59,370 nucleotides of DNA, from positions 1-59,370 of IMG/VR virus record IMGVR_UViG_3300045474_000007. One strand, written 5' to 3'. The notes under the pieces were generated by a model. It did no database searches. It worked only from the letters and a program-made list of their open reading frames with translations, and was not told the DNA's origin. Below are positions 8,386 through 33,642 of this stretch, in pieces (position 1 is the stretch's first letter; each line of letters begins with the position of its first letter). The stretch comes from a virus. Lineage: Duplodnaviria > Caudoviricetes. The position numbers and the translations under genes were made by a program.

Positions 8386-8795
8386 TTCAAATCCTCCTTA
8401 GTGATTAAGACGCTATCACACACCCACTTCCCAAGTTTATTTTTCTTCCAGCCGTGAATCTGAATAGAATGGCCCCGGATGGACAACCACGCCCAAGCCG
8501 CCCGGACTCGCTTAGGGTCATCCTTTATTTTCTTGATACGTGCCGCCATGTTGGTTTTCGTTGTGGTTTGCACCAGGATAGCCTCAGGATCGACATGAAT
8601 GCTGTCGAGAGAATGAGACTCCATTATCGTGCGCATACCCGCGATAGCCAGCAAGTCACCGAAGCCGAATAAATCCTGACGAATCTTTGCCCACGGATTC
8701 CAGTGCTCAACGATTGCCACAATGAAGCCCTGTTTACGCAGCAGAGATAGGCTCCGCTGCGTGGGGGACGTGCTACTTTTTTTCTTTACGGGCAC
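8382..8795 (-). CDS. PD-(D/E)XK nuclease (resolvase/VRR-NUC-like)
   Basis: DLFGFGDLLAI..ILVQTTT motif. Confidence 0.7.
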   Translation of the reverse strand: MPVKKKSSTSPTQRSLSLLRKQGFIVAIVEHWNPWAKIRQDLFGFGDLLAIAGMRTIMESHSLDSIHVDPEAILVQTTTKTNMAARIKKIKDDPKRVRAAWAWLSIRGHSIQIHGWKKNKLGKWVCDSVLITKEDLK

Positions 8796-10209
8796 GTTTC
8801 ACCACCTTTGTTTTGTCCCTCTTGGCCGGTACTGTAATGCGGTTCCGGATCACCTCCAGATTAACCACTCCAGGGTAGAGCCGCTCGACTTCTGCCGCAG
8901 CCCCTTTAGCCGTTCGCGGCAAGAGTAGGCCGGATAGCGCAAACCCGAAGATCAACTTTTGCAAGACTTTGACATCGTTGATTCGATCTATGTCCTCGGC
9001 CATATCGAAATTAGCCTTCAAGCCATAGTAGTCCAGGTGAACTTTCTTAAGATCGTTCCACATCCCATCCCACATAAAATTGGCGATAATGCGGTGCTCT
9101 ATCACACCGTCATGGTGAGAAACTTGGGTTAAGATATCGTTGTAAACTTCTTTAGCCACTTGCTTAGCCATCCGATCTTCGGCCAACTCTTTCTTGTGCT
9201 GTGGCGTGGCCTGAGCTCGTGCCGAATGAATCTTACACTTGGGGTCCGTGCATACGAGCGACTTCTTGTAGCCGCCGTCGATAATCAGCGCATGCATGGT
9301 GCTAGGGCACGTCAAGTCGGCCACCGTTATCGGCTTATACTTATCTGGCGCAATCTCGTCCATCCCATACGGGCGGGTGCCAGCGCGAATCAGAACCAGA
9401 TCGGGATTGTCTTTCTTTTTGCCATCGACAAACTTAGCCAACTTTTTCTTGAAACAAACCGGGTCCAGGCAAAGATTCTTTTCCTCCTTGCTCTCAAATA
9501 GCGCCGGTTGATTGTTGGACTGCTTAGGACACTCTACGCATGAGCCAACCCCTTGAATAAGATTGGCGTCCTTTAAGTCCCACGGTGCCTCTTTCAGGTT
9601 AGTAAACCGGCTGCGGCAGAACCAGTCCACGAGCGTTGCCGTAATGCCGCTGCGATTCTTCGCCTCCGCCAAACAAGCTTTCTGCGTTTCCGGCGTAGTT
9701 CGCGCCAGAGCAAAAGCCGTATCCAACCCTATCTTGTTCGCCTTAAACGATTCAGCGGCCGGAGCGATAAGGGAAACTAGTACTGCTCGCCGTTTGACAT
9801 AATTAACTTTCTTTCCGATTGCTAAACCTACAGCCTCGAACTCCCCGTTATGCTTCTCTAGGAGATCATTAATCAATACGGCTTCATCGTAGGGGTGAAG
9901 TTCCTCCCGCTGTAGAGCCGTAACCAATTGGGTTTGCTTGGCGTCCTCGTCCGTCATCTCCCGAACGATGCAAGGTACCACTGGCAGTTTCAGCTCCTCC
10001 GCTGCCGCTAGTCGGCGATGGCCGTTGACCATCTCGAAGCTAAACTTACTCCCGGCTTCTTGATTTATTGGACGGACAATTAGCGGCTCTATGATTCCGC
10101 CATTGGAAATGCTGTAGACCAGTTGCTCCATATTGGGCAAGGCCCGCCGTGGGTTAAACGGACTTGGCTCGATCTTGCTCGGCTCTATGTTTTCAATTTT
10201 CTCTGCCAT
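8773..10209 (-). CDS. ParB/RepB/Spo0J family protein
   Basis: PSPFNPR, GIIEPLIVRP, NGHRRLAAA and QREELHPYDEA motifs, HTH, Cys-rich C-terminus. Confidence 0.9.
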   Translation of the reverse strand: MAEKIENIEPSKIEPSPFNPRRALPNMEQLVYSISNGGIIEPLIVRPINQEAGSKFSFEMVNGHRRLAAAEELKLPVVPCIVREMTDEDAKQTQLVTALQREELHPYDEAVLINDLLEKHNGEFEAVGLAIGKKVNYVKRRAVLVSLIAPAAESFKANKIGLDTAFALARTTPETQKACLAEAKNRSGITATLVDWFCRSRFTNLKEAPWDLKDANLIQGVGSCVECPKQSNNQPALFESKEEKNLCLDPVCFKKKLAKFVDGKKKDNPDLVLIRAGTRPYGMDEIAPDKYKPITVADLTCPSTMHALIIDGGYKKSLVCTDPKCKIHSARAQATPQHKKELAEDRMAKQVAKEVYNDILTQVSHHDGVIEHRIIANFMWDGMWNDLKKVHLDYYGLKANFDMAEDIDRINDVKVLQKLIFGFALSGLLLPRTAKGAAAEVERLYPGVVNLEVIRNRITVPAKRDKTKVVKRARKEKK

Positions 10210-13590: not shown

Positions 13591-14455
13591 GGTCGCGCCT
13601 CCTTGGCTGTTCCGTCCCGTCCCATATGCGCAGCCCGCTGAACGTATCATAACGAATACCGTTGACGATCTTCTCTCTCGGCTCCGGCGCGGTGCTTACC
13701 AGCTTATTCCACTGGTTCGACAATGTGCCGATGGTTAACCCAAGTTTTTTTAGATACGGATCTGTCGTGTCAAACAATATCTGAGCTATGCGCCTAAATT
13801 CTGCATCCCCGTATTGCTTAAATAACGTGGTAGCCAGCGCAATGTCTTTGCCCGTCCAGTGATATTTTATCCCTGTTCTCTCCAGATAAACTCCAGACCA
13901 CCAGGCTAGACATTCCTCTCGCCCTGGTATAGGGATACGCATCCCCTTATCCTTAGCCTTCCCCTTCCCCTTACTATTGGCATTACCTAGGCTATTGTCC
14001 TCTCTCTTACTATCAACTATCCCTATAAGATCATCTCTAGGTATAAGACTAGGGGATTGACTAAGAGGTATATCTGGTGAGCGTAGCGAACCAGAAAGAG
14101 TTTCTTTTGTATGTTCCCTCAGGATACAACCCGTTGTTCCCTCAGGATACAACTCAAGTTTCCCGTCAGGAGCAGCATTCACGTTAATTTGATAAACATT
14201 GCCTAATGGTGAATGTTCGCATTTTATCAAATCACCAAGGCTGCGAACCATTCCAGGAATCTTTGATTGCGTAACGCCAGTTTGTTCTGCTAACTGGCTA
14301 AGACTTATCCGATCTTGCTTCTTATTCCATCCATAGGTTTTTCTAGCTATAGCCATGACAATTTTGAATTGGGCGTGGCTTACGCTGCGCATGACTTCAT
14401 CTAGAAGAAAGTGTGGTATTAGAGTAAAGTTTGCTTCAAGCTCAAGAGGTTTCAT
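13580..14455 (-). CDS. Phage replication initiator (lambda O-like N-terminal domain)
   Basis: IARKTYGWNKKQDRISLSQL motif; adjacent to dnaB. Confidence 0.85.
   Translation of the reverse strand: MKPLELEANFTLIPHFLLDEVMRSVSHAQFKIVMAIARKTYGWNKKQDRISLSQLAEQTGVTQSKIPGMVRSLGDLIKCEHSPLGNVYQINVNAAPDGKLELYPEGTTGCILREHTKETLSGSLRSPDIPLSQSPSLIPRDDLIGIVDSKREDNSLGNANSKGKGKAKDKGMRIPIPGREECLAWWSGVYLERTGIKYHWTGKDIALATTLFKQYGDAEFRRIAQILFDTTDPYLKKLGLTIGTLSNQWNKLVSTAPEPREKIVNGIRYDTFSGLRIWDGTEQPRRRDRGR
14112..14171. repeat. Iteron-like direct repeats (putative ori within the initiator gene)
   Basis: TGTTCCCTCAGGATACAAC at 14112 and 14135, partial third copy at ~14160. Confidence 0.7.
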
Positions 14456-19839: not shown

Positions 19840-20151
19840 TTAGACCCTATCTTTCTGGCCAATTATCGGTAATGGCCTTGACCTAGCTCTGATCCACTCC
19901 CAATAGTTGTCATACGGAATATTAATCCGTAGAGGTTCCCCTGTTGCCAAGATCCAACCGTTTTGTACGGCGATCTTGGTTTTGCTGTCTGGGATAAGGG
20001 CCAATTGGCCCCATAATCCGGCCGCAGAAGCAGGCTTATAGTGCAAAAACATTTGCTCTGACGTGCCTTCGCAAACTTTTCTACGCATCTCATTTTTAGC
20101 CCTATCAGCAGTTTCTGTTACCATCTCAAAATATTGCTCTTCCCATTTCAT
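19840..20151 (-). CDS. Hypothetical protein
   Basis: 103-aa ORF with GGGAGG RBS. Confidence 0.6.
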   Translation of the reverse strand: MKWEEQYFEMVTETADRAKNEMRRKVCEGTSEQMFLHYKPASAAGLWGQLALIPDSKTKIAVQNGWILATGEPLRINIPYDNYWEWIRARSRPLPIIGQKDRV

Positions 20152-20152
20152 T

Positions 20153-20353
20153 TTATGCCTCCCGTAACGCCTTCTCTACTACCGTCTTTACTTGTTCCAG
20201 CGTCTTGTCTTGCACCGTAATGCACGCCGTTTCCGTCTTGCGCTTGTCGTCCTGCCGCTTGGACTGGCGCATCTGGATATACACCGACTTACTTGGCTTG
20301 GGTTTCTTTCTGCCGATTATCATAGCTTCCCTCCTTTCTTGGGCCACTCCCAT
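20153..20353 (-). CDS. Hypothetical protein
   Basis: ORF with internal RBS AGGAGG before MIIGRKK. Confidence 0.55.
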   Translation of the reverse strand: MGVAQERREAMIIGRKKPKPSKSVYIQMRQSKRQDDKRKTETACITVQDKTLEQVKTVVEKALREA

Positions 20354-20477
20354 TTGTACTCGGGCATGTCATCGAAGTTGGTTCGCGCTCCATTGGCCGG
20401 AGAGTTCTCAAAGATTCGCACCCAGGTAGAGTCCTGCTTACGGCCAAACAATTTACGACGTAGCCACCGGATGATAC

Positions 20478-21476
20478 TCATCTTGCCCCCTTTGTTTTAA
20501 CTTCTATTACCGGACCAAAACTAAGTTCATTTTCCTCGTGACTTCGTTGTCCCTTTAGTGCTGATTCAACATTTTTTACGGCTTGGCGGTAGTAGCTTTC
20601 TTTCAGCTCTATCCCGACTCCGCGCCGTCCGGCCAGTACAGCACCGTATACTTCTGACCCTACACCCATATAGGGAGTTAACACCGTCTCTCCTGGGTTG
20701 CTCCACATTACGACGGCGCGATCAATAACGTCTAATTGAAGCGGGTGAACGTGCCTCTCGTCATCCGCATCTCTTGCTGGTTTATGCGGCAGTACGCGGT
20801 CGAGCCGTACATCATCCCAGAACGCAGATGCGTATCGCTGCCATATCCAATGAGAGTAACGATTCTCTAGCTGGCTCCCTTTCCAGTTTCGATACGGAAG
20901 TAACTCGTTCGGTATCTTCCTTTCGCCAGCATACTCGGAAAGCCCAGTGGGATGAGCAACCGGAATTGAGTTCTGTCCAGACCTTCGAAAGATAAGCAGG
21001 TAATCCGCATTCGCGATACTACACCGCGTTGAATCTATCGTGAGCCCCTTGTGAGACAACGATTTAGTCATTGTTCTGTTGCGCACTGTTAGAGGCTCTT
21101 TCCAAACATGATAACGCGCCACGTACTGGAACCCGCACTTCTGGTGCAATCTAATCACGTCGCCAGGAAAGTCCCTGAGGTGATCTAGCCCGGTGTTGCC
21201 GGTGGGGATATCCATGCAGTGAACTGCGGACATTCTCCCAGGCATAGTAATGCGATGAATCTCATTTACGCAAAACTCGTAGTGAGTAAAAAACTCGGGA
21301 TAATCGATGCAATTCGACAAGTCGCGTTCGTCTGAACTGTAAACGTACAGCCCTCCAAACGGAGGTGAGTACATAGAGAGATGAACCGACTCATCAGGAA
21401 TATTTTTCATGACCTCCATGCAATCTGCTTTGTAAAGAGCACAGCGATCAGTTACGAATTGAGTCTTTGAAGCCAC
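20478..21476 (-). CDS. DNA methyltransferase (N4-C/N6-A, beta class)
   Basis: Catalytic YSPPF; SAM-binding VLTPYMGVGSE; GVGIELKESYY. Confidence 0.92.
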   Translation of the reverse strand: MASKTQFVTDRCALYKADCMEVMKNIPDESVHLSMYSPPFGGLYVYSSDERDLSNCIDYPEFFTHYEFCVNEIHRITMPGRMSAVHCMDIPTGNTGLDHLRDFPGDVIRLHQKCGFQYVARYHVWKEPLTVRNRTMTKSLSHKGLTIDSTRCSIANADYLLIFRRSGQNSIPVAHPTGLSEYAGERKIPNELLPYRNWKGSQLENRYSHWIWQRYASAFWDDVRLDRVLPHKPARDADDERHVHPLQLDVIDRAVVMWSNPGETVLTPYMGVGSEVYGAVLAGRRGVGIELKESYYRQAVKNVESALKGQRSHEENELSFGPVIEVKTKGAR

Positions 21477-22900
21477 GGTGGAACCTCCATATTTTCGTTC
21501 GGGTCGGTTTGTATTCTCGCGATTGATTGAGCATCGTGCATGTGCCGTACTAGCTCGGTGAACATCCTATCAGCCGCATCAGCTTTCCGTTTCATGTTTT
21601 CGCGCACGTATCGCTCACCCGTCGTAGCAACGATATCAACGACGACTTCTCGCTTTTGGCCGAATCGCCAGAACCGTCTTACTGATTGGTAAAACTGTTC
21701 GTAGGAATGAGTTGCGAACGTAACGGTGTGAGCACAGTGCTGCCAGTTCATTCCCCAGGCTCCGATCTTTGGTTTCGTCACTATGACTCGGAGCTTTCCG
21801 GATGCAAAATCTTTGTATATCTCCTCTCTTTCTTCCTCCTCTGTAGATCCCTTGACCTGCCTACTGCCTTTGACTATCTTTTCGATCAGATCCGCTTCGT
21901 CGTTTAGATGACACCAGACGACTGCGGGGTTTTTATGATTGATCAGATTAGCAACGTACTCACATCGTTCCTGCAATGTGCGCCGCCGCTCGTCGCGCTC
22001 CTGACGTAAACCAAATGCCGGCAAGGTAAACAGCATTCCGTCGGCCGGGCGTGTAGGCTCAATAATATGCTCGCGCTCCGTCAATGGCGGCAAGATAAAA
22101 TCGCCGTCATTAAACCCTAGGTCACTAGGCTTGCGACACGCTCTTGCCCATGAGCATACCCACTTCCAGAACGGCACTTCTGCGTGACCCTTCAATCTCC
22201 ATTGCTCAATTTGCTGAGCCACGCGAAACGATAGTTTACCAAAGTGGTTAGCCTGATCTTTTTGATTCTTTTGCCATTGCTTTATATCTTCGCGTCGATG
22301 CGGCTTATTATCGCTCTGTTTGAAAAAACGCGAGAGCATATCGGAGTATCCGAGTTCAGCCAATGCCTCACTACTCGTTCCCAATTCGATGTAGTCATTA
22401 GGCGCAGCCGTTGCCGTACAGAGTAGCCGATAAGGGATCTTAAGCATGAATCGAGTAACTGCTTTTTGAGTTGCACCGGAAAAGTGTTTGAGTATAGACG
22501 ATTCATCGCACACCACGCCGCCAAAATCTTTTGATTCGAACAAGTGAAGCTTCTCATAATTTGTAATGACAATAGACTTTTTGGACATTCTGCCATCCCG
22601 CGAACGGATGCTTTCAATCCCAAATTTCTCAGACTCGATTAAAGTCTGCCCCCCCACGGCGAGAGGAGTTAAAATCAATACGGGCTTATTGGTGTGCCTC
22701 AATACATTCTCCGCCCACACAAGTTGCATTGGAGTTTTCCCCAGTCCGCAGTCGGCGAATATTGCACAACGCCCCCTATTGATAGCCCAATCAACTAGAC
22801 TGGATTGGAAGTCGAATAGAAAACTCGGCATCCATATCGGCGAGAATCCGTGATTCTCTCCCATCTGAGTTTTTTTGTTTAGAAACTCCTGATAGTTCAT
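21452..22900 (-). CDS. SNF2-like/SF2 helicase
   Basis: ADCGLGKT, DESS, TATAAPND and QSVRRFWRFGQ motifs. Confidence 0.92.
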   Translation of the reverse strand: MNYQEFLNKKTQMGENHGFSPIWMPSFLFDFQSSLVDWAINRGRCAIFADCGLGKTPMQLVWAENVLRHTNKPVLILTPLAVGGQTLIESEKFGIESIRSRDGRMSKKSIVITNYEKLHLFESKDFGGVVCDESSILKHFSGATQKAVTRFMLKIPYRLLCTATAAPNDYIELGTSSEALAELGYSDMLSRFFKQSDNKPHRREDIKQWQKNQKDQANHFGKLSFRVAQQIEQWRLKGHAEVPFWKWVCSWARACRKPSDLGFNDGDFILPPLTEREHIIEPTRPADGMLFTLPAFGLRQERDERRRTLQERCEYVANLINHKNPAVVWCHLNDEADLIEKIVKGSRQVKGSTEEEEREEIYKDFASGKLRVIVTKPKIGAWGMNWQHCAHTVTFATHSYEQFYQSVRRFWRFGQKREVVVDIVATTGERYVRENMKRKADAADRMFTELVRHMHDAQSIARIQTDPNENMEVPPWLQRLNS

Positions 22901-23070
22901 ACGTTCTCCAGTTGCGCTAGCGTAGCGACGATCTTAGCCGCATCCTCTTGGAGTCTCAGCCCGAGCAGCCATAGCGCGTCATTTTTACCATTGGCTTCTT
23001 GCATTAAATCCTTCAGTCCTGACATCAACGTCTCGGCGCATTGCATCGCCTTAGTGACTTTCTCATTCAT
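22897..23070 (-). CDS. Small hypothetical protein (57 aa)
   Basis: MNEKVTKAMQ..; ATGA overlaps at both ends. Confidence 0.5.
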   Translation of the reverse strand: MNEKVTKAMQCAETLMSGLKDLMQEANGKNDALWLLGLRLQEDAAKIVATLAQLENV

Positions 23071-23237
23071 TTTTCACACTCGTACTCCCTTTCTATTTTG
23101 CGTTGTTCTCTCATCCACATCCGTTTGTAATACCTCAGACAATCGCGGCAGTGGTTCTGATTTTTATAGTCATGCGGTAACAATACTCTCGCCACCACTC
23201 TCGCATATCGCCTCTGTGAATCCTCCGTGCGGTTCAT
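23067..23237 (-). CDS. Small hypothetical protein (56 aa)
   Basis: MNRTEDSQ..CRDC; ATGA overlaps at both ends. Confidence 0.45.
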   Translation of the reverse strand: MNRTEDSQRRYARVVARVLLPHDYKNQNHCRDCLRYYKRMWMREQRKIEREYECEK

Positions 23238-23488
23238 TTCTGGCTACGCTCCTGTAGCGCCTTGGACGTCCAGCATTGTAGAGCCAGTCGCACCATAACC
23301 GCAGCCACGTCGATTGCCTCCTCAGCTACAGCCTTTAGATCGTTCGCGTGGACAGCGGACTGGAGTTCGTTGAACTCCTCCAGTGCCACGCCTAACGCCT
23401 CATGCGAACTCGCAAAGTCGCCGTATCGTTCCTGAGCTCGTTCGCAGTGCCCCTTAATCATGTCTATGATTAGATCGTTTGTAATCAT
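23234..23488 (-). CDS. MazG-like NTP pyrophosphatase
   Basis: SSHEALGVALEEFNEL..EEAIDVAAV. Confidence 0.7.
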   Translation of the reverse strand: MITNDLIIDMIKGHCERAQERYGDFASSHEALGVALEEFNELQSAVHANDLKAVAEEAIDVAAVMVRLALQCWTSKALQERSQK

Positions 23489-25038
23489 GCAGCCTCCATA
23501 TCTGCTGGTTTCTCCAACTCATTATTGTCTTTCCATCCCTCACTCTTGAAATAGTACAGCTCTGACTTGGCTCGTGTGATAGCCACGTATTGGATGTTCT
23601 TCTCTTGCTCTTGCTGCCATCCTTGGCGAGCCCACTTACAGGGCATCAGTTGCGGGTCAAGGATAAATACCCGCTCCCACTCTAAGCCCTTGCTCTTGTG
23701 TACCGAGCACAGCGTGAGCCGCCCCGTGGGGTCATCGCTGAATAGGGCATTGATGCTATCCACTAGAGCCGTCACTGTGCGGTTATCCTCCTTGAGCTGT
23801 CCGATAAATATCTTGATCGTAATCACGCGATCTTCTACAGCCGCCGCACTTTGCTCCCGCCCTTTAGCCAGTAGTTTGGACACCTCGCGTGACTGGTATG
23901 CGTCTAACCTATCTCCTAGTTCTGCTATGCTGCCAGCATTCATTTTCTTAATTACCGTGATAAGCCCCTGCCCGATCTCCCTTCCGAGCACCTTGCACGC
24001 TTTGCCGTTGCGAATAAGCTTATAGGCCAGCTCAATCAACGGAGCATTTAGTCTGCATAGAATCGCGTCAGTCGATAGAAACGTTTCTGCCTTCACCGTC
24101 GCTAGCATTTCCACCTTGCCATCCGGCGCGGTATCGCAGTGCTCGATAATAGGAACAAGCTTCTTGGCCTCGGCCACGACAGCTCTAGAGCAACGGTAAG
24201 AAACAGAAAGCGGGAGTTGAGCAGCATTGAACTCTTCTGTTATCCGGTTGATAGATTCTGTGTCTGCTCCTCTGAAAGAATAGATTGACTGGGCTTTGTC
24301 TCCCACGGCAATCAATCTGCCGCCCGGCACGAGAGAAATCTTCAGCATTGCCCTCTGTATGGCACTGATATCCTGGCATTCATCCGCAAAGATGACATCG
24401 TACTGATTGAATTTAGCTTGCCAGATAACCGGCAGGTAGAGTTGATCGTCAAAGTCGATTACTTGCTTGCCTAACTTAATGCCCTCAGCCAGCACCAGCC
24501 GCGCAAGCTCCATACCTCGAGCAGGGTCGGCATCTTTACCGTCAAAGTCCACCCCAAATTTCTCTATCAGGTCCGCCCAGTTCTGCTCTGTATCCTGCAT
24601 CAGTGCACAGCCCACCCCTTCGCTCCCGCTTGGCACCAGTCCGTGGGCCTTGGCGAGCCCCACTAGCTTGGCAACTCCTTGGCCGTAGTCCTTGCTGTCC
24701 TTGGGATTCAAATTATCGTCGATGATCCAGCGTGTTTTCTTGGACTCCAGCTTTGGCTTTTTCTTGCCGATGCAGCTATTCAGATAGGCCCGGTAGCCCA
24801 TGCCGTTTAGAGTCATAGCCGCGACGTGAGGCGGCACCCGGGCTTGCAACTCCTGAGCGATGTTTCGGTTAAACGCCACAAAGGCCACCCGCTTGTCGGT
24901 TGGCACACGTCGTGCGGCTTCCACGATCACCGTGGTTTTGCTCCCGCCAGCTACGGCTAAGATCACCGCAGAGCCGGATTGATTCTCAACAAAATTGAAA
25001 ACGTCCAGTTGGTACTGGCTCCATATTCTGTCCATCAC
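23485..25038 (-). CDS. UvrD/Rep-like SF1 helicase
   Basis: AVAGGSKTT, DECQD, VGDKAQSIYSFRGA, HKSKGLEW and YVAITRAK motifs. Confidence 0.93.
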   Translation of the reverse strand: MMDRIWSQYQLDVFNFVENQSGSAVILAVAGGSKTTVIVEAARRVPTDKRVAFVAFNRNIAQELQARVPPHVAAMTLNGMGYRAYLNSCIGKKKPKLESKKTRWIIDDNLNPKDSKDYGQGVAKLVGLAKAHGLVPSGSEGVGCALMQDTEQNWADLIEKFGVDFDGKDADPARGMELARLVLAEGIKLGKQVIDFDDQLYLPVIWQAKFNQYDVIFADECQDISAIQRAMLKISLVPGGRLIAVGDKAQSIYSFRGADTESINRITEEFNAAQLPLSVSYRCSRAVVAEAKKLVPIIEHCDTAPDGKVEMLATVKAETFLSTDAILCRLNAPLIELAYKLIRNGKACKVLGREIGQGLITVIKKMNAGSIAELGDRLDAYQSREVSKLLAKGREQSAAAVEDRVITIKIFIGQLKEDNRTVTALVDSINALFSDDPTGRLTLCSVHKSKGLEWERVFILDPQLMPCKWARQGWQQEQEKNIQYVAITRAKSELYYFKSEGWKDNNELEKPADMEAA

Positions 25039-25067
25039 ACTTTTCTCCGTTCAGTTTTATAGGTTAG

Positions 25068-25149
25068 AACCCCTCTCAAACACCCCGTATTTGGCTCCAG
25101 GATTCGATTTGAGAGGGGGTTAGGGGTTGGTTAAGGGGTAGATAGGGGT
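25068..25149 (+). repeat. Dispersed ~80-bp repeat, copy C
   Basis: AAACACCCCGTATTTGGCTCCAGGAT...GGTTAAGGGGTAGATAGGGGT. Confidence 0.8.
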
Positions 25150-25361
25150 GCGCGGGTATCGCTCAGCAGCCAGACGTCCGTGATGTAGTCCGAGCTGCCG
25201 TCCTCCCACTCCACGTAGGCCACCAGGGTTTTGCCGGTGCAGACGATCAGGACGGGCTGTCCGGTGGCCGACATGCGCCATAGGACGTGGCGAAAAAACT
25301 TCTTGGCTAACGCTTCAAGTCGCATTTGCATTTCCCCTCTCGTTTGGTTAGGCCTCCTCAA
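25131..25361 (-). CDS. Hypothetical protein
   Basis: RBS GAGGGG before MQMRLE. Confidence 0.5.
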   Translation of the reverse strand: MRRPNQTRGEMQMRLEALAKKFFRHVLWRMSATGQPVLIVCTGKTLVAYVEWEDGSSDYITDVWLLSDTRAPLSTP

Positions 25362-25535
25362 TTTCGAACCCTGCCGCTATCATTTCGTCGGGGTCTAATT
25401 TCATGTTATTGACTCCTATGGGTTGGTTAGGTTAAGTTGCCTATGCGGTTTCTCTCGGGCCGCATTTCTCTCTCTCTTGGCCCCAGGAGTTTTCCATTCT
25501 CCTGGGGCCTCTTTCTCCCCTTCTCCCCTTCTCCC

Positions 25536-26285
25536 CTACTTAAAGTCGATATACCGTCGCGCTTTATCCCAGCGGATATCCGCTACGGTCACCCCACGAT
25601 ACAATTGTTCCGCGATAGACTTTCCACTCACATAGAGCCCGAACCGTCGAGCCGATGACGTCCCCTCTTTCTTTGGGTTCTTATCGACTAGCAGAACAAC
25701 TTTCGTCTTTTTGTCCTGTGCCTCGCCTATCACGACTGTCTCCTTCACTCGTTTAGCTTTTACAGGCTCGGCTTCGGCTTTTGCGGCGGCTTTTTTTACT
25801 GTGGGTTTCTTCGCAGCGACGGGTTTCTTCGCGGCAGCGAGCGTCTTGGTCAAATCCGCTTCTAACTCCTTGGTTGTCTTGCGCTGCTTGACTACCTTGC
25901 CCCCAGCGCCGACGACGATTGCCTTTGCCTCACGAGTCGCCTTAAGCGACTCCAGTGTCCCTTTACTCACGTTCTTGCTTCCTTTCGCGCCTTTGCCCTC
26001 GGCTTTGGGTGCATCGCTAGACGCAGTTGGTGTTGATTGCAGTTGCATACAGTAGGCTATGTCGCTCGGGTGCCACTTGGTAGCCCTTCTGGCATGATCC
26101 GAATCCCTCGCCGTTACGTGGGCATACTCCCGGGTGCTCTTGTTTTTGACGCCGAATAGAAGTCCTTTAGCATCGGCGATGATCTCACGCGGTGGCGTCG
26201 TTTTGGTTTGGAATGAGTCCTCTACGATATGATCTAGAGGCACTACGTCCAGCGGTTGTGCTGGCTTGATTCTCTTGCGTTTCAT
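25536..26285 (-). CDS. Lys/Ala-rich early protein, possibly DNA-binding
   Basis: Start coupled at ATGA 26285; histone-like AAKKP tract; C-terminal NPKKEGTSSARRF..DIRWD domain. Confidence 0.7.
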   Translation of the reverse strand: MKRKRIKPAQPLDVVPLDHIVEDSFQTKTTPPREIIADAKGLLFGVKNKSTREYAHVTARDSDHARRATKWHPSDIAYCMQLQSTPTASSDAPKAEGKGAKGSKNVSKGTLESLKATREAKAIVVGAGGKVVKQRKTTKELEADLTKTLAAAKKPVAAKKPTVKKAAAKAEAEPVKAKRVKETVVIGEAQDKKTKVVLLVDKNPKKEGTSSARRFGLYVSGKSIAEQLYRGVTVADIRWDKARRYIDFK

Positions 26286-26497
26286 TTCTTTGCCAGCTCC
26301 TTTCGGAGCAGTGCGTTCTGCTCCTCGTAGAGTGCAATCAACTTTAGAGTTGTCAGGCTGGGCTTCTTGATGCGCTTGCGCTCTGGCATGTCTACCAGTT
26401 CGATGGGCACTCGCTCTCCCATATCTACATCGAATGCCGTTTTTGATTTGCGACTTCGGACTATCGCCGCGTTGCCATATATAGTCGTGGTTTTCAT
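26282..26497 (-). CDS. First gene of the early operon, hypothetical (71 aa)
   Basis: AAAGGA RBS before ATG 26497. Confidence 0.65.
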   Translation of the reverse strand: MKTTTIYGNAAIVRSRKSKTAFDVDMGERVPIELVDMPERKRIKKPSLTTLKLIALYEEQNALLRKELAKK

Positions 26498-26520
26498 TGT
26501 CGTGTTCCTTTCTGTTGCGC

Positions 26521-26600
26521 ACGTTGTGGTAGCTGCCATCATCAGTGCTCAGGAACAACCCCGAGCAGACGAGCCGGATCGCTCCGGCCCGTTTCGGCTT
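26521..26600 (-). ncRNA. Type II hammerhead ribozyme
   Basis: GCC-GAAA-C GGGCCGGA/TCCGGCTC-GTC^-TGCTCGGG/CCTGAGCA-CTGATGA-T-GGC; loop I GTTGT pairs with downstream ACAAC. Confidence 0.9.
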
Positions 26601-27012
26601 TTATTATTGCCATCCCCCAACGCTCTCGCCTTGCTCAATCAAGGATTCGTCTCCGTGTGCCTACACCGCCATTGATTTGCGCGTGGATCGGATTGTGGTT
26701 GCGTCTCACGACGGAGTGCAATGCGACGTGCGCCCGCTTTAGGTTGCTCAAGTTCATGCTTGGAAATGCGGCAGCATCGTTGGTACGAAGCCATACGTGC
26801 AGCCGGGGATCGCAATTAACGGGACAATGGTTTTCGGCGGATAGAATTTCTTGGCTTTGGGGTCGTCCGATAATCAACCGACCGTTAGATCGGGACCGTT
26901 ACCGGATTTGGTTACCACTCGGATGTCGTTTCACGGTGGTGGACTGTTTGTCGGGGGTCTACAGGGCGTCGTGTTTCCCTGGCGGCATTCGATCTTCTAC
27001 TCGGTGGCCGCG

Positions 27013-27102
27013 TATTCAGTTTTCAAAGATCAAATTGATGAAATCAGATTATAAAAAAACATGATAAAATACAAGTCGCCTCCCATCATTTTTGATGAAA
27101 TC
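27013..27102 (-). promoter_or_regulatory. Early promoter with rrn-like boxA and flanking 11-bp direct repeats
   Basis: TATAAT at 27053-27048 in an AT-rich tract; GATCTTTGAAAACTGAATA at 27031-27013; TTGATGAAATC at 27035 and 27092. Confidence 0.65.
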
Positions 27103-27140
27103 GGAAAACTCCTTGCAAATCAATATGTTAAAATGCTTTT

Positions 27141-27857
27141 TTAGAAATCTAATGAGATGGAAAAATCGGAGCCGCCTCGAACGACGCGGTGAATCATTCC
27201 AGGGTATTTTGCGATTAAACGCGAGGTGCAATCGCGCTCTACGTCCTGCGTCCTATACGTTTTGCACCCTGCCGGGGTCGTCCAATGTTCATTTTCCCAA
27301 AACAGATATCGGCAACCCAATACGCCGCCGTTTTTTTTGATTGAGCGGAGGCACAATTCGTAATCCTCTTTTACCGTAAAAGACTCATCGAACCGTAAAG
27401 CTGGATCATTAAAGATGCCCATACACGAGCCTGTCACATAAGTGTAAAATAAAAAGGGGTGGCTAGGATACCATGTCCTAGACGCGGATATGTTCGCCAT
27501 CCCCCAAATATCAAAGTGCAACTCCTCCGCAACGTCAAACAGCACCGAAAACTCGCGAAGCCATTCCGGTTCCGTTAGCGTCCGTCTATTCATGTTAGTT
27601 TCTGCTATCTCAAGCCATCCGCAATTCTTGACATCATCATCAACGAATACAACGCGACGATCCTTGACGTGATTCAATATCCAATTCCGCGTCGCTGTGA
27701 TCCCCTTCACTTGGATCGGCACACCGACCACATTCTTGCACCCATGGGTTTTGTAGTCCGCCACTTCTACGAGGGGAACGAATACCGTCGCGCTAGGTAG
27801 TATCTTAAGCGTTCTGACTCTGTTCGCACGCCCCATGCTCGGCACTGCGATTATCAC
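27141..27857 (-). CDS. GREB1-like/TET-associated (TAGT) GT-A glycosyltransferase
   Basis: IAVPSMGRA, GITATRNWIL, VFVDDD, KEDYELCLR and AGC motifs. Confidence 0.8.
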   Translation of the reverse strand: MIIAVPSMGRANRVRTLKILPSATVFVPLVEVADYKTHGCKNVVGVPIQVKGITATRNWILNHVKDRRVVFVDDDVKNCGWLEIAETNMNRRTLTEPEWLREFSVLFDVAEELHFDIWGMANISASRTWYPSHPFLFYTYVTGSCMGIFNDPALRFDESFTVKEDYELCLRSIKKNGGVLGCRYLFWENEHWTTPAGCKTYRTQDVERDCTSRLIAKYPGMIHRVVRGGSDFSISLDF

Positions 27858-28492
27858 TTTAGCCTCTGAATGAGATCGCTCGCCAACACCACCCTTTGGC
27901 GACGTGTTATATCGAAAGGCGAACCATGCTTGTAGCCGCCACGGCGAACCATCTTAAGATTCAACTTGTCCACTAAGGCATCGTACTGGTCTGGACTCTC
28001 CGGGTCGCACATCACTATGATATATTCTCGCTGCGGCTTCAGTTGCACCGCTTGTTCCAGTACCACGCTGTTCTCGTTGTCATCATTATCAAACTTCCCC
28101 TTTTCCGTGTCTGAGAACATTCCATCTAGCAGAGATTCGGCATCCAACTCCGCCATCATCTCTTTGTCCCACGTTGACAGCTCACTGCCTCTGTTGTCAT
28201 ACAAGGCGAGGCGTTTTTTTTGCTTCCCGCTAAGCCCAGTTCTTCGCACCACTACCCACTCTGACCCTGAAGCATTAACTACCTTAACGCGCCGGATGCC
28301 CGCCTTCCCTAGCGCCGCCATTGTCGCGTTGCCTGCCAATACGTTGTTGTTCTCGTCGATAACTCCCGATCTGCCTGTGCCAACTTCGTGTAACGCATCG
28401 ACAATCATGCCGACGTTTCGCGCATTGTGCTTGCGGGCGTTTTTGGTATCAGGATTGAGCGCGGAAAGTTCTACGATCTCGACATCGTTCAC
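27854..28492 (-). CDS. ParB-like N-terminal domain protein (DNA-modification associated)
   Basis: NPDTKNARKH, VLAGNAT and LALYDNR..WD motifs; GTGA-coupled start at 28492. Confidence 0.8.
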   Translation of the reverse strand: MNDVEIVELSALNPDTKNARKHNARNVGMIVDALHEVGTGRSGVIDENNNVLAGNATMAALGKAGIRRVKVVNASGSEWVVVRRTGLSGKQKKRLALYDNRGSELSTWDKEMMAELDAESLLDGMFSDTEKGKFDNDDNENSVVLEQAVQLKPQREYIIVMCDPESPDQYDALVDKLNLKMVRRGGYKHGSPFDITRRQRVVLASDLIQRLK

Positions 28493-28995
28493 ACCATTAC
28501 TGTTGCCGCTTGCTCCGTTGTTGGCATGTACAGGTTCCAGTTTTCCATGAACTGATCTCGCCTTGCCGCTCCGATCTCTGAGTTCCAGTTTCTTTTGTAA
28601 TACTGCCACATTCCCTCCTTATCATCCCAAGCAGGTAGAGCGCCAGGCCTTACCCAATAAGCTAGCCGAGCGTAAGCCGTGGCTAGATAAGCATTGCCGT
28701 GAAGCTGGAGTATCCCGTTAGGGCCGTTTATCATTCGCAAATCGCGCACCTGCATTTCGAATTTCAAATTGTCATGGCCCGTTAGCCAGTTATCCACCTC
28801 GTCATAGCGCATCTGCTCAAACTGGAAAATGGAGACAGCAGGCCCGCCTTGCTGGTGAACCATGCGGCCGCCGAAGGACTCCTGAGCCACCGTGGCCGCT
28901 AGCAGGATAACGGCGCTCGGGGTGTAGATATTAGGCTCTACGGTAGCCAGCTTGCGGCAGACAGGGATGAAAACATAGCGAATGTAATCTAACAT
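28489..28995 (-). CDS. Putative endolysin (lysozyme-like fold)
   Basis: LLAATVAQES..GGPAVSIFQFE..ARLAYW..YYKRNWNS; next to a small membrane protein. Confidence 0.7.
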   Translation of the reverse strand: MLDYIRYVFIPVCRKLATVEPNIYTPSAVILLAATVAQESFGGRMVHQQGGPAVSIFQFEQMRYDEVDNWLTGHDNLKFEMQVRDLRMINGPNGILQLHGNAYLATAYARLAYWVRPGALPAWDDKEGMWQYYKRNWNSEIGAARRDQFMENWNLYMPTTEQAATVMV

Positions 28996-29001
28996 TTTAG
29001 G

Positions 29002-29190
29002 TCACCTGAACGTAATGCCGCCCATGTTGCCGCCCATCAAAATATTAACCAGCCACAGCACGCACAGAACCACGATAACGACGCGAGCAACCTTGAGAAT
29101 CATCGCGTCCACGGTTAACTGCCCAATGACCCACCAGAGCAGAGCCACCAAAATTAGAACCACCATAATAGAGATGATCGGAATATTCAT
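29002..29190 (-). CDS. Two-TM membrane protein (holin candidate)
   Basis: Two hydrophobic helices; adjacent to the lysin. Confidence 0.7.
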   Translation of the reverse strand: MNIPIISIMVVLILVALLWWVIGQLTVDAMILKVARVVIVVLCVLWLVNILMGGNMGGITFR

Positions 29191-29208
29191 AACTAAGACT
29201 CATTCTTG

Positions 29209-32200
29209 TTATTGGTAGCGGTAGATGAAAAAGTCCGTGAGACTCGGGTCATGGTTTCCTGCTCCAGCGCACTCCGAAGTAGTATCTGCCCGACAAAGCC
29301 CCCCAAACGTCATAAGAACATTATTGATTGAATCGAACTTAAAATGGTTGCCGCGAACCGTCTTTCCTTCCGGCTGAAACATGGGGTCAATAGCCCATGT
29401 GTTTACGAGCGGATTGTAAATAAATAAAGTTGGACGAGAGTGGCCCAATGAGCAGATCCAGGGATAGAATAAAATCCTGTTAACTGAATCGAATGCAAGT
29501 TGAGTAAAGTCTTGGAGCCCGCCTCCTTGCCAAGCTGACGCATCTGCCGGTAAATCTGGAGCGCAACTAGACCCCGCTTTATTAGTCATTGCTGGATAAA
29601 GAAAATATGACCCGCCAGTCAAATTGGGTAGGGCCGCGCCGCTAAATGTGACCGTAGTATTGCCTCCGCTGAAAACAGCAGATGTAGGCACATTGGTTTG
29701 AATGTAATTCCCAGAAGTATCTCGAATAGAAACGTCCCTTGCAAAAATCGGCTTGCCAGTAATTGCTACAGATGTTTGATCCCCGGAAAGTGTAACCGTA
29801 TTTGCAGTTGATGAAACCACATCAACATACTGACTAAACGGGCCGTTAGGTGGCTTAGGAGGCTTTGCTTTCTTGGTTAACACCGTGGGGCAATTTGGAC
29901 CATGAGCACAAGACTGCGCAGCAGTAATGTCTAGCTCGTAAAGATCGTAGTTGAGCGGGTCCATCCCGTATATCTTGCGCCCCTCTATATCAATCGTTAT
30001 CCACTCAAATTGCATATCTCCGCTGTTAGGCACGAAGGTGCCAAACGAGTAACTTGTAATCGTTGGCCATGCGGAAAGATCATAAACGTACCAGGCAACG
30101 CCACGGCCATCAGTACCGACGCGAAAAATCTTTTTGGTTACTGGATCGTAAACGGCATTCTTTGGAGCTTGAGAATGATCGCCGCCTGTACCCGCGCATG
30201 TCCCGTTAAAAAGAGTTCGGCATGGCCACGATGGCGAAGCACTCCACTTGTTCGTTGTTTCAGAGTCAAATACCAGATCCTGAATCACTTGATATGCACC
30301 ACCTGGGGGTTGATACCAGACTGTAAGAGGCGCTCCCGTTGATGCAACAGACACCCCCTCGCTATTAACACCGGAAGCCGTAAGCGTTTGTTGCCCCGTA
30401 GATGGAGTATCCCGTTGAATCGTTATGCCAAGGGATTCGTAAAATCTATTAGCATTGCCACCCGTAACGTTAAACGCTTGGTATAGTTGTCCGGTGATAA
30501 CCATAGGTACAGCTGTGCTTGGCCACGTAACCGCCCCACCGCATTGATTCGAAGGCCCGCTCTGCGTTAAGAACCAGAACCCCGGTTGCAGGACAAACTT
30601 CTTTTGCTCTGGCACATAGACCCAGCCTGATTCATTCGCGCCGCCGGGCATAATATCCCCATCTATGCCGCAGTGCGGATAATCATTACGCCAGGAGTTC
30701 GTTGGAATGTGATAGGACCAGACGCCTTGATTGTCACCGTAAGAGACAAGCTCTGAATCTCCACCCGTAATATACATGCGCCCGTTATCAGTGTTTATCT
30801 GTAGATTCATGTGCTTGCCGCCGTAGGCACCGCCAACTCCACCATTTCCCGGTGCTCCAGCTGGCACTGTTGAGTAGGGCACTGCCACCCAAGTCTGAGG
30901 CGGAGGACTGAACATCCGTATAGCTCTATGATTGTCGCTAGCTCCTGGATCGCCAGCCTGAGAGCAATCGTTTCCACCCATATACAGGTGCAACTTGACG
31001 TTTGGCGCGTAGACCGCAGTCGCATTAAATACGCACGCGAGCCCAGGCGGAGTGATGTCCCGCCAAGTGTTTGCCGCAATCGAATAATATTGCAGCTTGT
31101 TATAAGTCCAGACAACCAGCGCGTTTTGCACGATATCGTAGGTCATCGCTACTTGCAGATTCGGCGCACCAAACGGATTAAGCGGATGAACGACGCGAGG
31201 GGGATTAGCGAGTTGATGCCATGCGCGGTCGCTAACGGTCCACTTCCAAAGGTCTCCGGTCGTATCCTCGATCAAGGGAGAACCGGATTGCACACGGCCG
31301 GAGTACAGGTAAAAATCTGGGCCAACGGCTACCAGCGCGTTCATCATCTGGTCCCGCGCTGGCGGATTACCGCTGAGCGTTGTCACCTTGTATCGCTTAG
31401 CCCCGCCAATATCACGTTCGATAAGAAACGTAGCGTTGGTCGGATTGCCGCCGCCCGAGCCGCAGCAAATCATGCCCATGTCCCCAACTTCACTCCAAGC
31501 CGTACCTGGATCAGTGCCGGTGTACGGCATTCCGCCTGTTAGAACTCCGGTGAATCCCTCAACGTATCCCGTCCCTCCGCGCTTGGTCCCGCCGGTTTCC
31601 ACCCAGGTGTTTGTCGTAAAGCTGAATCGCCCACCAGATTTTACCCCCACAAGATTAACATCGCTCAAGTCGGAGACCGCTGGGACCGCATCATAGACAA
31701 ACGTGCTGAGCCCGGTCTGCACTGTCGCCACGCTCCCTACAACCACTACAGATGTTGCGCCGCCTTCATTCGTCGTCGGAATCCAGCCCGATGGCCCAGT
31801 AGGAAACGTCACGTTGTACCATGTCTTAGATACCGATGAGGTTGGCCCAGCTATCACGGTGCCGACCGCGCCAGCGAACTGCACAGCTAGCGCGTCGAGA
31901 TGACTGCCAGCCCAAATCCAATACTCATTCAAGGCTGGAACATAAAAGGATCCGTGATTGTCGCGCTTCTGCGGTGCATTGACGGCATCAGCAGTAAAGA
32001 GCGTTGTCCATGCCTTAGTCACCGGGTCATAGCCGTACAGCGAGTTGTTACCCGACGAAGGGCCGGAGCCAAACGGATGAAGCATTTTATTTATGCTTGA
32101 AATCCAGTGATCGCGAGCAAAGCCACTATTTCCTAAACCGGCAGGATCAACGGGAATAGATGAAACGCTTTCATGCACGCCATCGTCCCCTATTCCCGCG

Positions 32201-33642
32201 CCATTACCATTGTCGATAATCGTAACAGTTGCAGATGACGGGAAGCCGACAGAGTATCCGGTCCCGGCAGTAATCGTCATTACTGCGGTTTCGCTCCCTT
32301 CAGCCAAGCTATCATTGACTGGCGAGAGCGTAACTGTCGTTGTAGTAGAGCCCCCGGCTATCGTGGCCGTGCCTGGGAGCGTAACGTAATCGGTCCCATT
32401 CGTGGCCGTACCGCCCATCGTATAGTTAACCGTCAATGACGATGCAGTTGATCCTGTGCGAGTCAGCGTAAAAATTCCAGGGTCGCCCAGCTCATCAGCG
32501 CTGGCGTCCGTAGCTACAACGCTAACGGTAGGCCCGGATGAACCCATGATAAACTGGTTGCTGGTGGCGATCTTATTGTACGAGCCAGAAGTAAAGAGCC
32601 TTAGGTTAAACGTATTAGTTGGACGCGGCGAGATTGGCATCGCAATCGTGCATGTGTTTGAAGCTACGGCGCCGCTCCCCGCAGTTTGAGTGCAGCTGTT
32701 GGCATAAACCCAATTCACATAGAAAGATGTGTCAACAACCTGACTTGCCTCATACAGTCCTATCCAGTCAGTAATCGTAGGGGAAGGAACACCGGCGAAT
32801 GTAGCTGTTTCAGTGCCGCCAATAGCTACCGGATCGGGAGTTGCCGCAATGGCTGGGCCTCCTGCCGCATCGTTATCTATCAGTGTAATCGTAGCCGAAG
32901 CGGGACTTCCGACGCTGTAAGCCGCATCCGCGCTAAGAGTCAGGACTACAGTTTCAGTTCCCTCGACTAAAATATCGTCTATCGGTATAACCGTCAGAGT
33001 AGCAGATGTCTGGCCCCCTCCGATTGTTATCGTGCCGTTTAGGGTTTGGTAATCCACTCCGTTGGTAGCGGTGCCGCTCATCGCGTAATGAACCGTCAAC
33101 GATGATGTTGTGGCCCCGGTGCGGCTTATCAGATAAGTCCCGGTATCCGAATTAGTGGGACTCTCTGTAGCCACGGAGTCGGTAGCCACCACGTTAACCA
33201 CCGGGAGCGTTACGCCTCCCATCGTAAACTGGTTGCTAGTGGCTAGTCGCGTGTAGGAGCCTTGAGCGAATAGGCGCAGCTCGAACACCGGGCTCGATAA
33301 TTGGGACTGCGGCATGTTGATAGAGCAAACCCCTGAGGCAACGGCGCTACTAGGAATAGACTGAGTGCAATTACCAGCGTAAACCCAATTTGCGTAGCCG
33401 TTGACGTCCGGTGAGTTGTAAACGTACAGCCCAATCCAATCGGTTGTTGTCGGGATTTGTATCCCTGAAAACGTCCCGGTAGTGATGCCTCCGAGAATAA
33501 CTGGATCGGGTGATGCCGCAATCGTAACTCCCGGGCTAACCACGAGCGTTCCCGCGCCGCCCGGCCCCGGTATCCGAACCTGAGCCAGAGCCGCTGCCGC
33601 CAGACAAGCCCAAGCAACCACAGTAAACAGCAAATGTTTCAA
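29209..33642 (-). CDS. Large secreted adhesin-like protein (Ig-like x2, Calx-beta x2, Kelch/beta-propeller)
   Basis: Signal peptide; duplicated DWIGLY modules; Calx-beta GTATNGVDY..VEGTETVVLTL; Kelch-like repeats. Confidence 0.85.
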   Translation of the reverse strand: MKHLLFTVVAWACLAAAALAQVRIPGPGGAGTLVVSPGVTIAASPDPVILGGITTGTFSGIQIPTTTDWIGLYVYNSPDVNGYANWVYAGNCTQSIPSSAVASGVCSINMPQSQLSSPVFELRLFAQGSYTRLATSNQFTMGGVTLPVVNVVATDSVATESPTNSDTGTYLISRTGATTSSLTVHYAMSGTATNGVDYQTLNGTITIGGGQTSATLTVIPIDDILVEGTETVVLTLSADAAYSVGSPASATITLIDNDAAGGPAIAATPDPVAIGGTETATFAGVPSPTITDWIGLYEASQVVDTSFYVNWVYANSCTQTAGSGAVASNTCTIAMPISPRPTNTFNLRLFTSGSYNKIATSNQFIMGSSGPTVSVVATDASADELGDPGIFTLTRTGSTASSLTVNYTMGGTATNGTDYVTLPGTATIAGGSTTTTVTLSPVNDSLAEGSETAVMTITAGTGYSVGFPSSATVTIIDNGNGAGIGDDGVHESVSSIPVDPAGLGNSGFARDHWISSINKMLHPFGSGPSSGNNSLYGYDPVTKAWTTLFTADAVNAPQKRDNHGSFYVPALNEYWIWAGSHLDALAVQFAGAVGTVIAGPTSSVSKTWYNVTFPTGPSGWIPTTNEGGATSVVVVGSVATVQTGLSTFVYDAVPAVSDLSDVNLVGVKSGGRFSFTTNTWVETGGTKRGGTGYVEGFTGVLTGGMPYTGTDPGTAWSEVGDMGMICCGSGGGNPTNATFLIERDIGGAKRYKVTTLSGNPPARDQMMNALVAVGPDFYLYSGRVQSGSPLIEDTTGDLWKWTVSDRAWHQLANPPRVVHPLNPFGAPNLQVAMTYDIVQNALVVWTYNKLQYYSIAANTWRDITPPGLACVFNATAVYAPNVKLHLYMGGNDCSQAGDPGASDNHRAIRMFSPPPQTWVAVPYSTVPAGAPGNGGVGGAYGGKHMNLQINTDNGRMYITGGDSELVSYGDNQGVWSYHIPTNSWRNDYPHCGIDGDIMPGGANESGWVYVPEQKKFVLQPGFWFLTQSGPSNQCGGAVTWPSTAVPMVITGQLYQAFNVTGGNANRFYESLGITIQRDTPSTGQQTLTASGVNSEGVSVASTGAPLTVWYQPPGGAYQVIQDLVFDSETTNKWSASPSWPCRTLFNGTCAGTGGDHSQAPKNAVYDPVTKKIFRVGTDGRGVAWYVYDLSAWPTITSYSFGTFVPNSGDMQFEWITIDIEGRKIYGMDPLNYDLYELDITAAQSCAHGPNCPTVLTKKAKPPKPPNGPFSQYVDVVSSTANTVTLSGDQTSVAITGKPIFARDVSIRDTSGNYIQTNVPTSAVFSGGNTTVTFSGAALPNLTGGSYFLYPAMTNKAGSSCAPDLPADASAWQGGGLQDFTQLAFDSVNRILFYPWICSLGHSRPTLFIYNPLVNTWAIDPMFQPEGKTVRGNHFKFDSINNVLMTFGGLCRADTTSECAGAGNHDPSLTDFFIYRYQ

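Follow-up and report, generated by a model that had tools for sequence, protein, structure and literature searches.

A probable type II hammerhead ribozyme in the 5' untranslated region of a replication-type gene module of a metagenomic tailed phage

The window, that is the whole stretch of 59,370 bases analysed here, is an IMG/VR virus record that is classed as linear, with a CheckV completeness of 57%. Its minus strand carries essentially all of the long open reading frames. Matches to PHROGs and Pfam identify structural genes (large terminase, portal, head-morphogenesis proteins and a J-like tail fibre), replication-type genes (DnaB-like, UvrD-like and SNF2-like helicases and an N6/N4 methylase) and, in addition, HNH endonucleases, two proteins with a ParB-N domain and a TET-associated glycosyltransferase (TAGT); given this gene set, the source is a tailed phage. 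Along the direction of transcription, the ribozyme that is the subject of this study comes after the tail, ParB and TAGT genes and before the replication-type genes, and it is followed on its 3' side by two genes of no known family, then by helicases, the methylase and DnaB. Its immediate surroundings are as follows:

27857-27141, minus strand: upstream gene, a TAGT homologue (Pfam PF20691 at E 1.3e-10 and 42 bits, the cut-off being 27.5; phrog_842)
27140-26600, minus strand: non-coding stretch upstream of the ribozyme, with no coding signal
26511-26505, minus strand: AAAGGAA, resembling a Shine-Dalgarno sequence, 7-9 nt upstream of the ATG at 26497
26497-26282, minus strand: first downstream gene, 71 aa, gene-like with a codon-usage score of 0.124
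26285-25536, minus strand: second downstream gene, 249 aa with a Lys/Ala-rich middle, gene-like with a codon-usage score of 0.166

On the scale of this score, real genes (training) range from 0.09 to 0.23 and off-frames from -0.19 to -0.37. Neither the 71-aa nor the 249-aa protein matches a Pfam or PHROG family; the 71-aa open reading frame has a letter-for-letter identical entry in the Atlas, and beyond that entry the comparison of the downstream proteins with the Atlas yielded nothing usable. Upstream, the TAGT gene adjoins a gene for a ParB-N-like protein (27854-28609); elsewhere in the window there are genes for another ParB_N protein and for an N6/N4 DNA methylase (8773-10209 and 20478-21476). 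The combination of TAGT, ParB_N proteins and methylase suggests DNA hypermodification; no member of the TET/JBP family was found among the 40 window proteins scanned with Pfam, in a record that is only 57% complete. The tail module is closed by a protein of 1477 aa (29209-33642, minus strand) with Calx-beta (E 1.9e-20) and Kelch/beta-propeller matches and no PHROG match.

The TAGT gene and the 71-aa gene are separated by a gap of 643 nt (27140-26498), exceeded in length by only one other among the 21 intergenic gaps of at least 60 nt, and it is this gap that the ribozyme closes. The longest gap of the window (13651-14451; 801 nt, 44% GC) lies directly upstream of the DnaB-like helicase gene and has no Rfam match. 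Read from the minus strand, the end of the 643-nt gap contains the following elements:

26599-26527, minus strand: type II hammerhead ribozyme, given as the extent of the RF02276 match
26598-26596, minus strand: 5'-side strand of stem II, GCC, read from the sequence; C26596 is C11.1 and the strand pairs with GGC at 26537-26535
26595-26592, minus strand: core GAAA (G12, A13, A14, A15.1), read from the sequence
26592-26569, minus strand: stem III hairpin, A26592-U26569 through G26584-C26577, from sequence and minimum free energy (MFE) fold
26570-26568, minus strand: GUC triplet, with the predicted cut between C26568 and U26567, from its place relative to the Rfam consensus
26567-26546, minus strand: stem I hairpin of 8 bp, U26567-A26546 through G26560-C26553, read from the sequence
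26559-26554, minus strand: loop I, GUUGUU, read from the sequence
26545-26539, minus strand: core CUGAUGA, read from the sequence
26538, minus strand: extra U between A9 and G10.1, read from the sequence
26537-26535, minus strand: 3'-side strand of stem II, GGC, read from the sequence; G26537 is G10.1
26527-26523, minus strand: ACAAC, doubtful partner of the loop I bases GUUGU (26559-26555), 7 nt after stem II
26518-26514, minus strand: GCAAC, second, near-equal partner of the same loop bases with one G-U pair, duplex energy -5.4 kcal/mol

The original prediction had named a type II hammerhead at this position and proposed Infernal with the Rfam model as a check, and this check supports it: RF02276 (Hammerhead_II) aligns to the minus strand at 26599-26527 over its full length (model positions 1-66 of 66), at 52.5 bits against a gathering threshold of 37 (E 5.6e-8), and the match was recovered in a repeat genome search. 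No other of the 4227 Rfam families matched anywhere in the 59,370-base window, even at E<=5. In a control scan of 20 loci of the same class, 21 RF02276 matches were obtained in 14 loci, with scores from 38.3 to 66.9 bits, which places the window copy in the middle of the range. The core and stem elements that had been predicted are each found at the positions listed above, in the order GCC-GAAA-hairpin-GUC-hairpin-CUGAUGA-U-GGC, and this order is reproduced by the MFE fold of 26599-26520. Stem III consists of 9 pairs, one of them G-U, or of 10 if A26583-U26578 closes the GCGA tetraloop, and the stem I hairpin is the would-be 5' end of the 3' cleavage product. From the first base of that product to the ATG at 26497 there are 70 nt, the same distance as originally given for the predicted cut.

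The core definition of Perreault et al. (2011, PMC3088659, as worded in its Methods) comprises C3 U4 G5 A6 N7 G8 A9, G12 A13 A14, the pair A15.1-U16.1 and H17, and the window copy has each of these in CUGAUGA (26545-26539), GAAA (26595-26592), A26592-U26569 and C26568. The Watson-Crick pairs adjacent to the core are all present as well (U26567-A26546, G26537-C26596 when U26538 is counted as bulged, and A26592-U26569), and the permutation is that of type II, with stems I and III closed by loops and stem II open. By its sequence, then, the hammerhead motif is real and far beyond chance. That it is a chance resemblance and not a ribozyme has a negligible probability; this reading can point to the fact that the present copy is known from its own sequence alone, but it has to accommodate an E-value of 5.6e-8 for the whole window against all 4227 Rfam families, the correct orientation, and a placement close to a ribosome-binding site that is typical of the class.

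The element is also an ordinary one, because very many phages carry it. The pattern CCGAAAC..GTC..CUGAUGAUGG occurs at more than 121 viral contig loci, and the class sequences listed share the start AGCC-GAAAC, two hairpins, CUGAUGA-U-GGC and a tail complementary to loop I, which among the matches listed is usually followed by a ribosome-binding site of the AGAAAGG type and an ATG. A class alignment of 109 rows was built from the matches listed, consisting of the window copy and 108 class sequences; about 12 pattern matches had been dropped beforehand for the failure of their two hairpins to close over four pairs, a filter that favours stems I and III and not the pseudoknot. In this alignment 89.2% of the cells are paired, against 68.6% after shuffling (none of 500 shuffles reaching the observed value) and 29-46% with the partners slid. 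The covariation score is 0.510; the shuffles score 0.156, and versions with slid partners score 0.125 at most. The stem II helix is paired in 99.1% of its cells, and all six pairs of the pseudoknot show changes on both sides, one of them being C-G in 44 rows and U-A in 44. Strong covariation is thus seen across the class, both in the stems and in the pseudoknot that loop I forms with the tail. This agrees with the type II consensus and pseudoknot as presented in the text of Perreault et al. (2011, PMC3088659).

A second viral sample, in which the sequence after CUGAUGA was left unconstrained, gave 124 unique matches, and both hairpins close in 89 of them (all with GCC-GAAAC). Of these 89, 56 continue with UGG and 28 with GGC. 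The extra U of the window copy is therefore the majority state in the sampled class and not an oddity. A primary paper on an extra residue at this place, in the CChMVd (+) hammerhead, is reportedly that of De la Pena and Flores from 2001. In the account given in the review PMC3705267, the viroid hammerhead shares with the window copy the one additional nucleotide between A9 and G10.1, which is tolerated there and for which U gives a 3-4-fold faster trans-cleavage than A; that hammerhead differs in being of type III, in making loop-loop contacts and in that its additional residue is naturally A, whereas the window has a phage type II hammerhead with U.

Some members of the class occur in company. 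In one viral contig of 191 kb (L131), type II hammerheads at 1499-1572 and 1803-1877 are followed about 1 kb further on by a pistol ribozyme (RF02679, 40.4 bits; 2865-2924, plus strand), and co-occurrence of ribozyme classes is known. Several viral contigs (L136, with four RF02276 matches in 3 kb, L135, L175-L177 and L202-L204) have type II hammerheads in dense arrays, at intervals of a few hundred bases. The window, unlike these, has a single hammerhead.

The tertiary contact of the window copy is less certain than its core. A pseudoknot GUUGU/ACAAC had been predicted, and the 5-bp complementarity does exist; it lies, however, within what shuffled sequence produces and outside the register of the class. 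When the 6-nt loop alone is considered, 5 bp turn up in 443 of 5000 runs if the first 14 tail bases are shuffled and in 330 of 5000 if 20 are, and with the whole stem I hairpin in 1807 of 5000 tail shuffles. Judged by duplex energy, 28.6% of 2000 shuffles equal the real tail, for which the site chosen by the program is GCAAC at 26518-26514. The class register was taken from 111 unique class sequences listed, as a Watson-Crick match between loop I and the tail of at least 4 bp within 14 tail nucleotides: 104 of the 111 have such a pseudoknot, and in 96 of the 104 it starts 0-3 nt after CUGAUGAUGG. In the window copy the best match, GUUGU/ACAAC with 5 bp, starts at offset 8 after CUGAUGAUGG, the candidate partner being about 6-7 nt further 3' than the class position, and in the class pseudoknot columns the copy pairs at 3 of 6, non-contiguously. 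Six other pattern matches listed have a partner at an offset of at least 6, each of only 4 bp; five of these (L054, L071, L084, L086 and L105) have no Rfam match at gathering, and the sixth (L046) passes Rfam, its pseudoknot being a wobble one that keeps the normal register.

These observations bear on a reading in which the hammerhead is decaying or very slow. Here an insertion of about 6 nt in the tail (UACCAC) would have moved the pseudoknot partner off stem II in the descendant of an active phage hammerhead, leaving little cleavage at cellular Mg2+ and no present role. The pseudoknot being out of class register agrees with this, as does L218, an independent viral hammerhead (56.1 bits) in which the loop GUUGU is paired with GCAAC one nucleotide after stem II and whose tail resembles that of the window minus six bases. 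A loop I pseudoknot with the sequence 3' of stem II is stated by Perreault et al. (2011, PMC3088659) for 'a majority' of type II hammerheads and not as obligatory, and the same paper reports that kobs drops by orders of magnitude when there are insertions around the pseudoknot. With the pseudoknot shifted, the window copy may by the same effect be slow. Yet a relic should collect changes in its core, and here the core, the three stems and the pairs adjacent to the core are intact and the Rfam score is mid-range. The loop still has a 5-bp Watson-Crick partner, and one other lineage (L132/L133, 46.3 bits) also seemingly has its partner 4-5 nt after stem II; together with L218 it keeps the GUUGU/ACAAC pairing alive. 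A decaying hammerhead is unlikely; a genuine type II hammerhead remains the preferred reading, with a catalytic core that is intact, a tertiary stabiliser that is uncertain and cleavage that may be slow.

The crystal structure solved for a hammerhead with a pseudoknot (PMC11300833) offers a comparison for this contact. It shares with the window a pseudoknot helix of loop and tail beside a very short stem II, which in the window is a candidate. In that RNA, as far as the source describes it, the pseudoknot helix continues straight from the pair G10.1-C11.1, whereas in the window 7 unpaired nucleotides would separate the 3-bp stem II from the candidate helix.

Another feature of the tail concerns translation. 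The segment UGUUCCU (26557-26551), in the 3' half of loop I and the stem I strand, is a perfect 7-bp Watson-Crick complement of AGGAACA (26509-26503) in the region of the ribosome-binding site. This could be part of a translational switch, in which the ribozyme fold and a fold that masks the ribosome-binding site would exclude each other and so tie expression of the first gene to folding of the ribozyme. When the downstream 45 nt are included, stem I is indeed replaced in the MFE fold by pairing with the ribosome-binding region, in the 126-nt region as well as in the 3' product, and the two folds are near-isoenergetic, the hammerhead-constrained fold being predicted to be nearly as stable as the MFE fold (-38.7 versus -39.2 kcal/mol). 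For the hammerhead itself, the competing fold is a point against, and this near-equal stability a point in favour. However, shuffling the tail gives a match of 7 bp in 588 of 5000 cases, and such matches are not enriched in the class, with 3.3% at 7 bp or more against 1.3% of shuffles and means of 4.11 against 3.95. For the 3' product, folding yields a z-score of -0.79. Moreover, both strands of stem I are on the 3' product, and cleavage would therefore leave the competition unchanged. The complementarity is probably due to chance, and a switch of this kind is very improbable. Within the same region, the AUG in the core CUGAUGA (26542) is in frame with the 71-aa gene and would give an open reading frame of 86 aa (26542-26282, minus strand); as there is no ribosome-binding site in front of it, this in-core AUG is probably a coincidence.

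With respect to its surroundings, the window copy differs from the class. Among the matches listed, the median distance from the stop codon of the upstream same-strand open reading frame is 1 nt (99 loci), and that to the first start that opens an open reading frame of at least 40 aa is 23 nt (109 loci). For the window copy, the upstream non-coding DNA amounts to 540 nt, and the distance from the GG to the ATG is 38 nt. Against the class median of 1 nt, its context is atypical: it lies on the gene strand and close to a ribosome-binding site, as other phage hammerheads do, and lacks their packing between stop codon and ribosome-binding site. A crude measure of strand bias over the class loci gave no signal (55 versus 54). 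The long upstream non-coding stretch fits a promoter-proximal leader or a module boundary.

The gap was also considered as a gene and rejected, since all of its open reading frames and sliding windows are rated non-coding by codon usage (scores of -0.18 to -0.03 on the minus strand, and -0.10 for a plus-strand open reading frame of 135 aa). No other intergenic DNA of the window is as AT-rich as the first 120 nt of this gap, with a minimum GC of 0.20 per 60 nt compared with at least 0.32 in the other gaps, and this AT-rich part contains the following:

27140-27020, minus strand: AT-rich promoter-like region with 28-34% GC, from composition and motifs
27074-27048, minus strand: TTGTAT and TATAAT at a spacing of 15 nt, with a perfect TATAAT at 27053-27048
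27105-27092 and 27048-27035, minus strand: 14-nt direct repeat TCYGATTTCATCAA, with 13 of 14 bases identical and the copies 57 nt apart

The second copy of TCYGATTTCATCAA (27048-27035) abuts the -10 box. Elsewhere in the window the repeat has no exact copy, and 4 matches at up to 2 mismatches compare with 0.72 expected. An AT-rich stretch with TATAAT and repeats resembles, weakly, a regulated promoter with operators, and is here taken as putative. A standard promoter scan found none on the minus strand within the gap. A relaxed sigma-70-like scan gave 32 matches on the gene strand and 34 on the other; as such matches are just as frequent on the non-coding strand, the TTGTAT-15-TATAAT match has no discriminating power.

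The ribozyme had originally been placed at the head of the early operon. It does close a long gap with an AT-rich beginning, ahead of a block of genes; the promoter, on the other hand, is a candidate, and 'early' was assumed. Like that placement, the proposed release of the upstream leader as a discrete RNA is putative and draws on the AT-rich promoter-like stretch. The 478-nt candidate leader shows no structure signal (fold z-score -0.66), and no match for the DNA of the gap was found in the phage collection. Read-through from the upstream genes of the same strand is equally possible. There is a more elaborate combination of these elements, in which the ribozyme would be the 3' processing site of a functional leader of about 470 nt made from a regulated promoter (TATAAT and the two 14-nt repeats), pairing of stem I with the ribosome-binding site would set translation, and the displaced pseudoknot would be tuned and slower. 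If true, the cut would free a long RNA with a cyclic-phosphate end and a function of its own, and the displaced pseudoknot would not be damage. Taken as a whole, this combination is a long shot.

Relatives of the locus were sought in several ways. Neither megablast with 20000-33000 nor blastn with 26480-27160 found a match among 50,697 phage records, and the 249-aa protein has no relative among the viral contigs. Of the sequencing runs listed for the locus, none is an RNA run; the single DNA run may come from the source sample. The helicase (23485-25038) has relatives at 8 viral loci (34-44% identity) and at 7 metagenome loci (28-45% identity over long matches, with two short fragments at 58-61%), and in these relatives the gene order upstream of the helicase differs from that of the window. 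Rfam found nothing at gathering in the 8 viral helicase loci and nothing at E<=1 in the 7 metagenome loci. Five whole records of helicase relatives contained no RF02276 match (0 of 5); the built-in control of this search was also without a match, and the model does recover the window copy by the same genome search. As none of the relatives is sufficiently close, there is no covariation for the window copy itself. The helicase relatives being without an Rfam match, the hammerhead appears sporadic in this lineage, and sporadic occurrence is usual for phage hammerheads. That the phage's relatives have no hammerhead in the loci and records scanned is also in line with the unlikely reading of a slow, decaying element. 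An 18-nt stretch of the ribozyme tail was encountered at 49 loci in bacterial genome contigs. These were rejected as hammerheads, as their flanks have no hammerhead core and five pattern flags proved spurious; the near-identical flanks of several groups of these loci, across unrelated taxa, point to coding sequence.

Taken together, I consider it probable that this is a genuine type II hammerhead in the 5' UTR of the first (71-aa) gene of a module for replication and nucleic-acid metabolism. In their accessible description, the type II hammerheads of bacteria and phages (RF02276; Perreault et al. 2011, PMC3088659) share with it the core, a short open stem II, capped stems I and III, and a place in phage DNA that is on the strand of the genes and shortly ahead of a ribosome-binding site. 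The window copy differs from these in that the pseudoknot partner does not follow immediately after stem II, and in that it is single and lies behind 540 non-coding nucleotides, neither wedged between genes nor arrayed.

A close precedent for an early mRNA that begins at a ribozyme is found in the haloviruses HF1/HF2. There, the hammerhead lies 13 nt before the first open reading frame, a helicase gene, of an early polycistronic transcript whose mapped 5' end is the cleavage site (PMC3088659). As in the HF1/HF2 HHphage of that account, the hammerhead of the window precedes the first open reading frame of a replication-type block by a few tens of nucleotides. HF1/HF2 has an atypical insertion in the core, an archaeal halophile as host, the helicase gene 13 nt on and a mapped transcript (PMC3088659), whereas the window has a consensus core, a 71-aa open reading frame as first gene and 70 nt from cut to ATG. 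Hammerheads flank genes in prophages too, for example clustered at the ardA locus of Agrobacterium (Perreault et al. 2011, PMC3088659), and type II hammerheads near phage-like genes of Desulfovibrio vulgaris cleave in vivo (PMC8782182). As presented in these sources, both share with the window the type, the vicinity of phage genes and a proposed processing of polycistronic RNA. They differ in being multi-copy or chromosomal prophage loci with cleavage data; the window contributes one metagenomic copy and, relative to HF1/HF2 as well as to these loci, its sequence only.

How such an element could act follows from the chemistry of its class. Hammerheads cleave 3' of C17 by an internal transesterification that yields a 2',3'-cyclic phosphate and a 5'-OH. 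The transcribed RNA would accordingly be expected to cut itself 3' of C26568, and the upstream RNA would keep the 2',3'-cyclic phosphate end. The downstream mRNA would begin with a 5'-OH directly at the 8-bp stem I hairpin, followed by a leader of 70 nt and the ribosome-binding site. The structured 5'-OH end that had been proposed for the message, and the cyclic-phosphate end of the RNA before it, would thus both follow if the ribozyme cleaves. Judging from context and from what the literature proposes, the cut might uncouple the message of the replication module from the RNA upstream. The detached RNA could be a leader of about 470 nt that starts at a promoter within the AT-rich stretch, close to 27050, or it could be read-through that originates in the glycosyltransferase, ParB and tail genes, and the separated parts could then differ in stability and translation. 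For phage hammerheads such a role in uncoupling is described as proposed and unproven in the relevant parts of PMC3088659 and of a review (PMC6765202).

Type II hammerheads adjoining phage genes have been catalogued since 2011, and the window copy is one more example that introduces no new principle; the purpose of those beside phage genes is called still undefined in the 2019 review (PMC6765202, in the portion drawn upon). The window copy departs from its class only in its pseudoknot, which is displaced and unsupported, and in being placed behind a long non-coding stretch. Its value is modest and twofold. As a clean example with one copy, at the boundary of a module and preceded by a long stretch that is not translated, it would allow the effect of cleavage on the stability and translation of the message to be measured without interference from neighbouring ribozymes. 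It is also a natural variant in which the partner of loop I would lie about 6-7 nt further from stem II than in the sampled class, and could thereby indicate how much linker the tertiary contact of these phage hammerheads tolerates.
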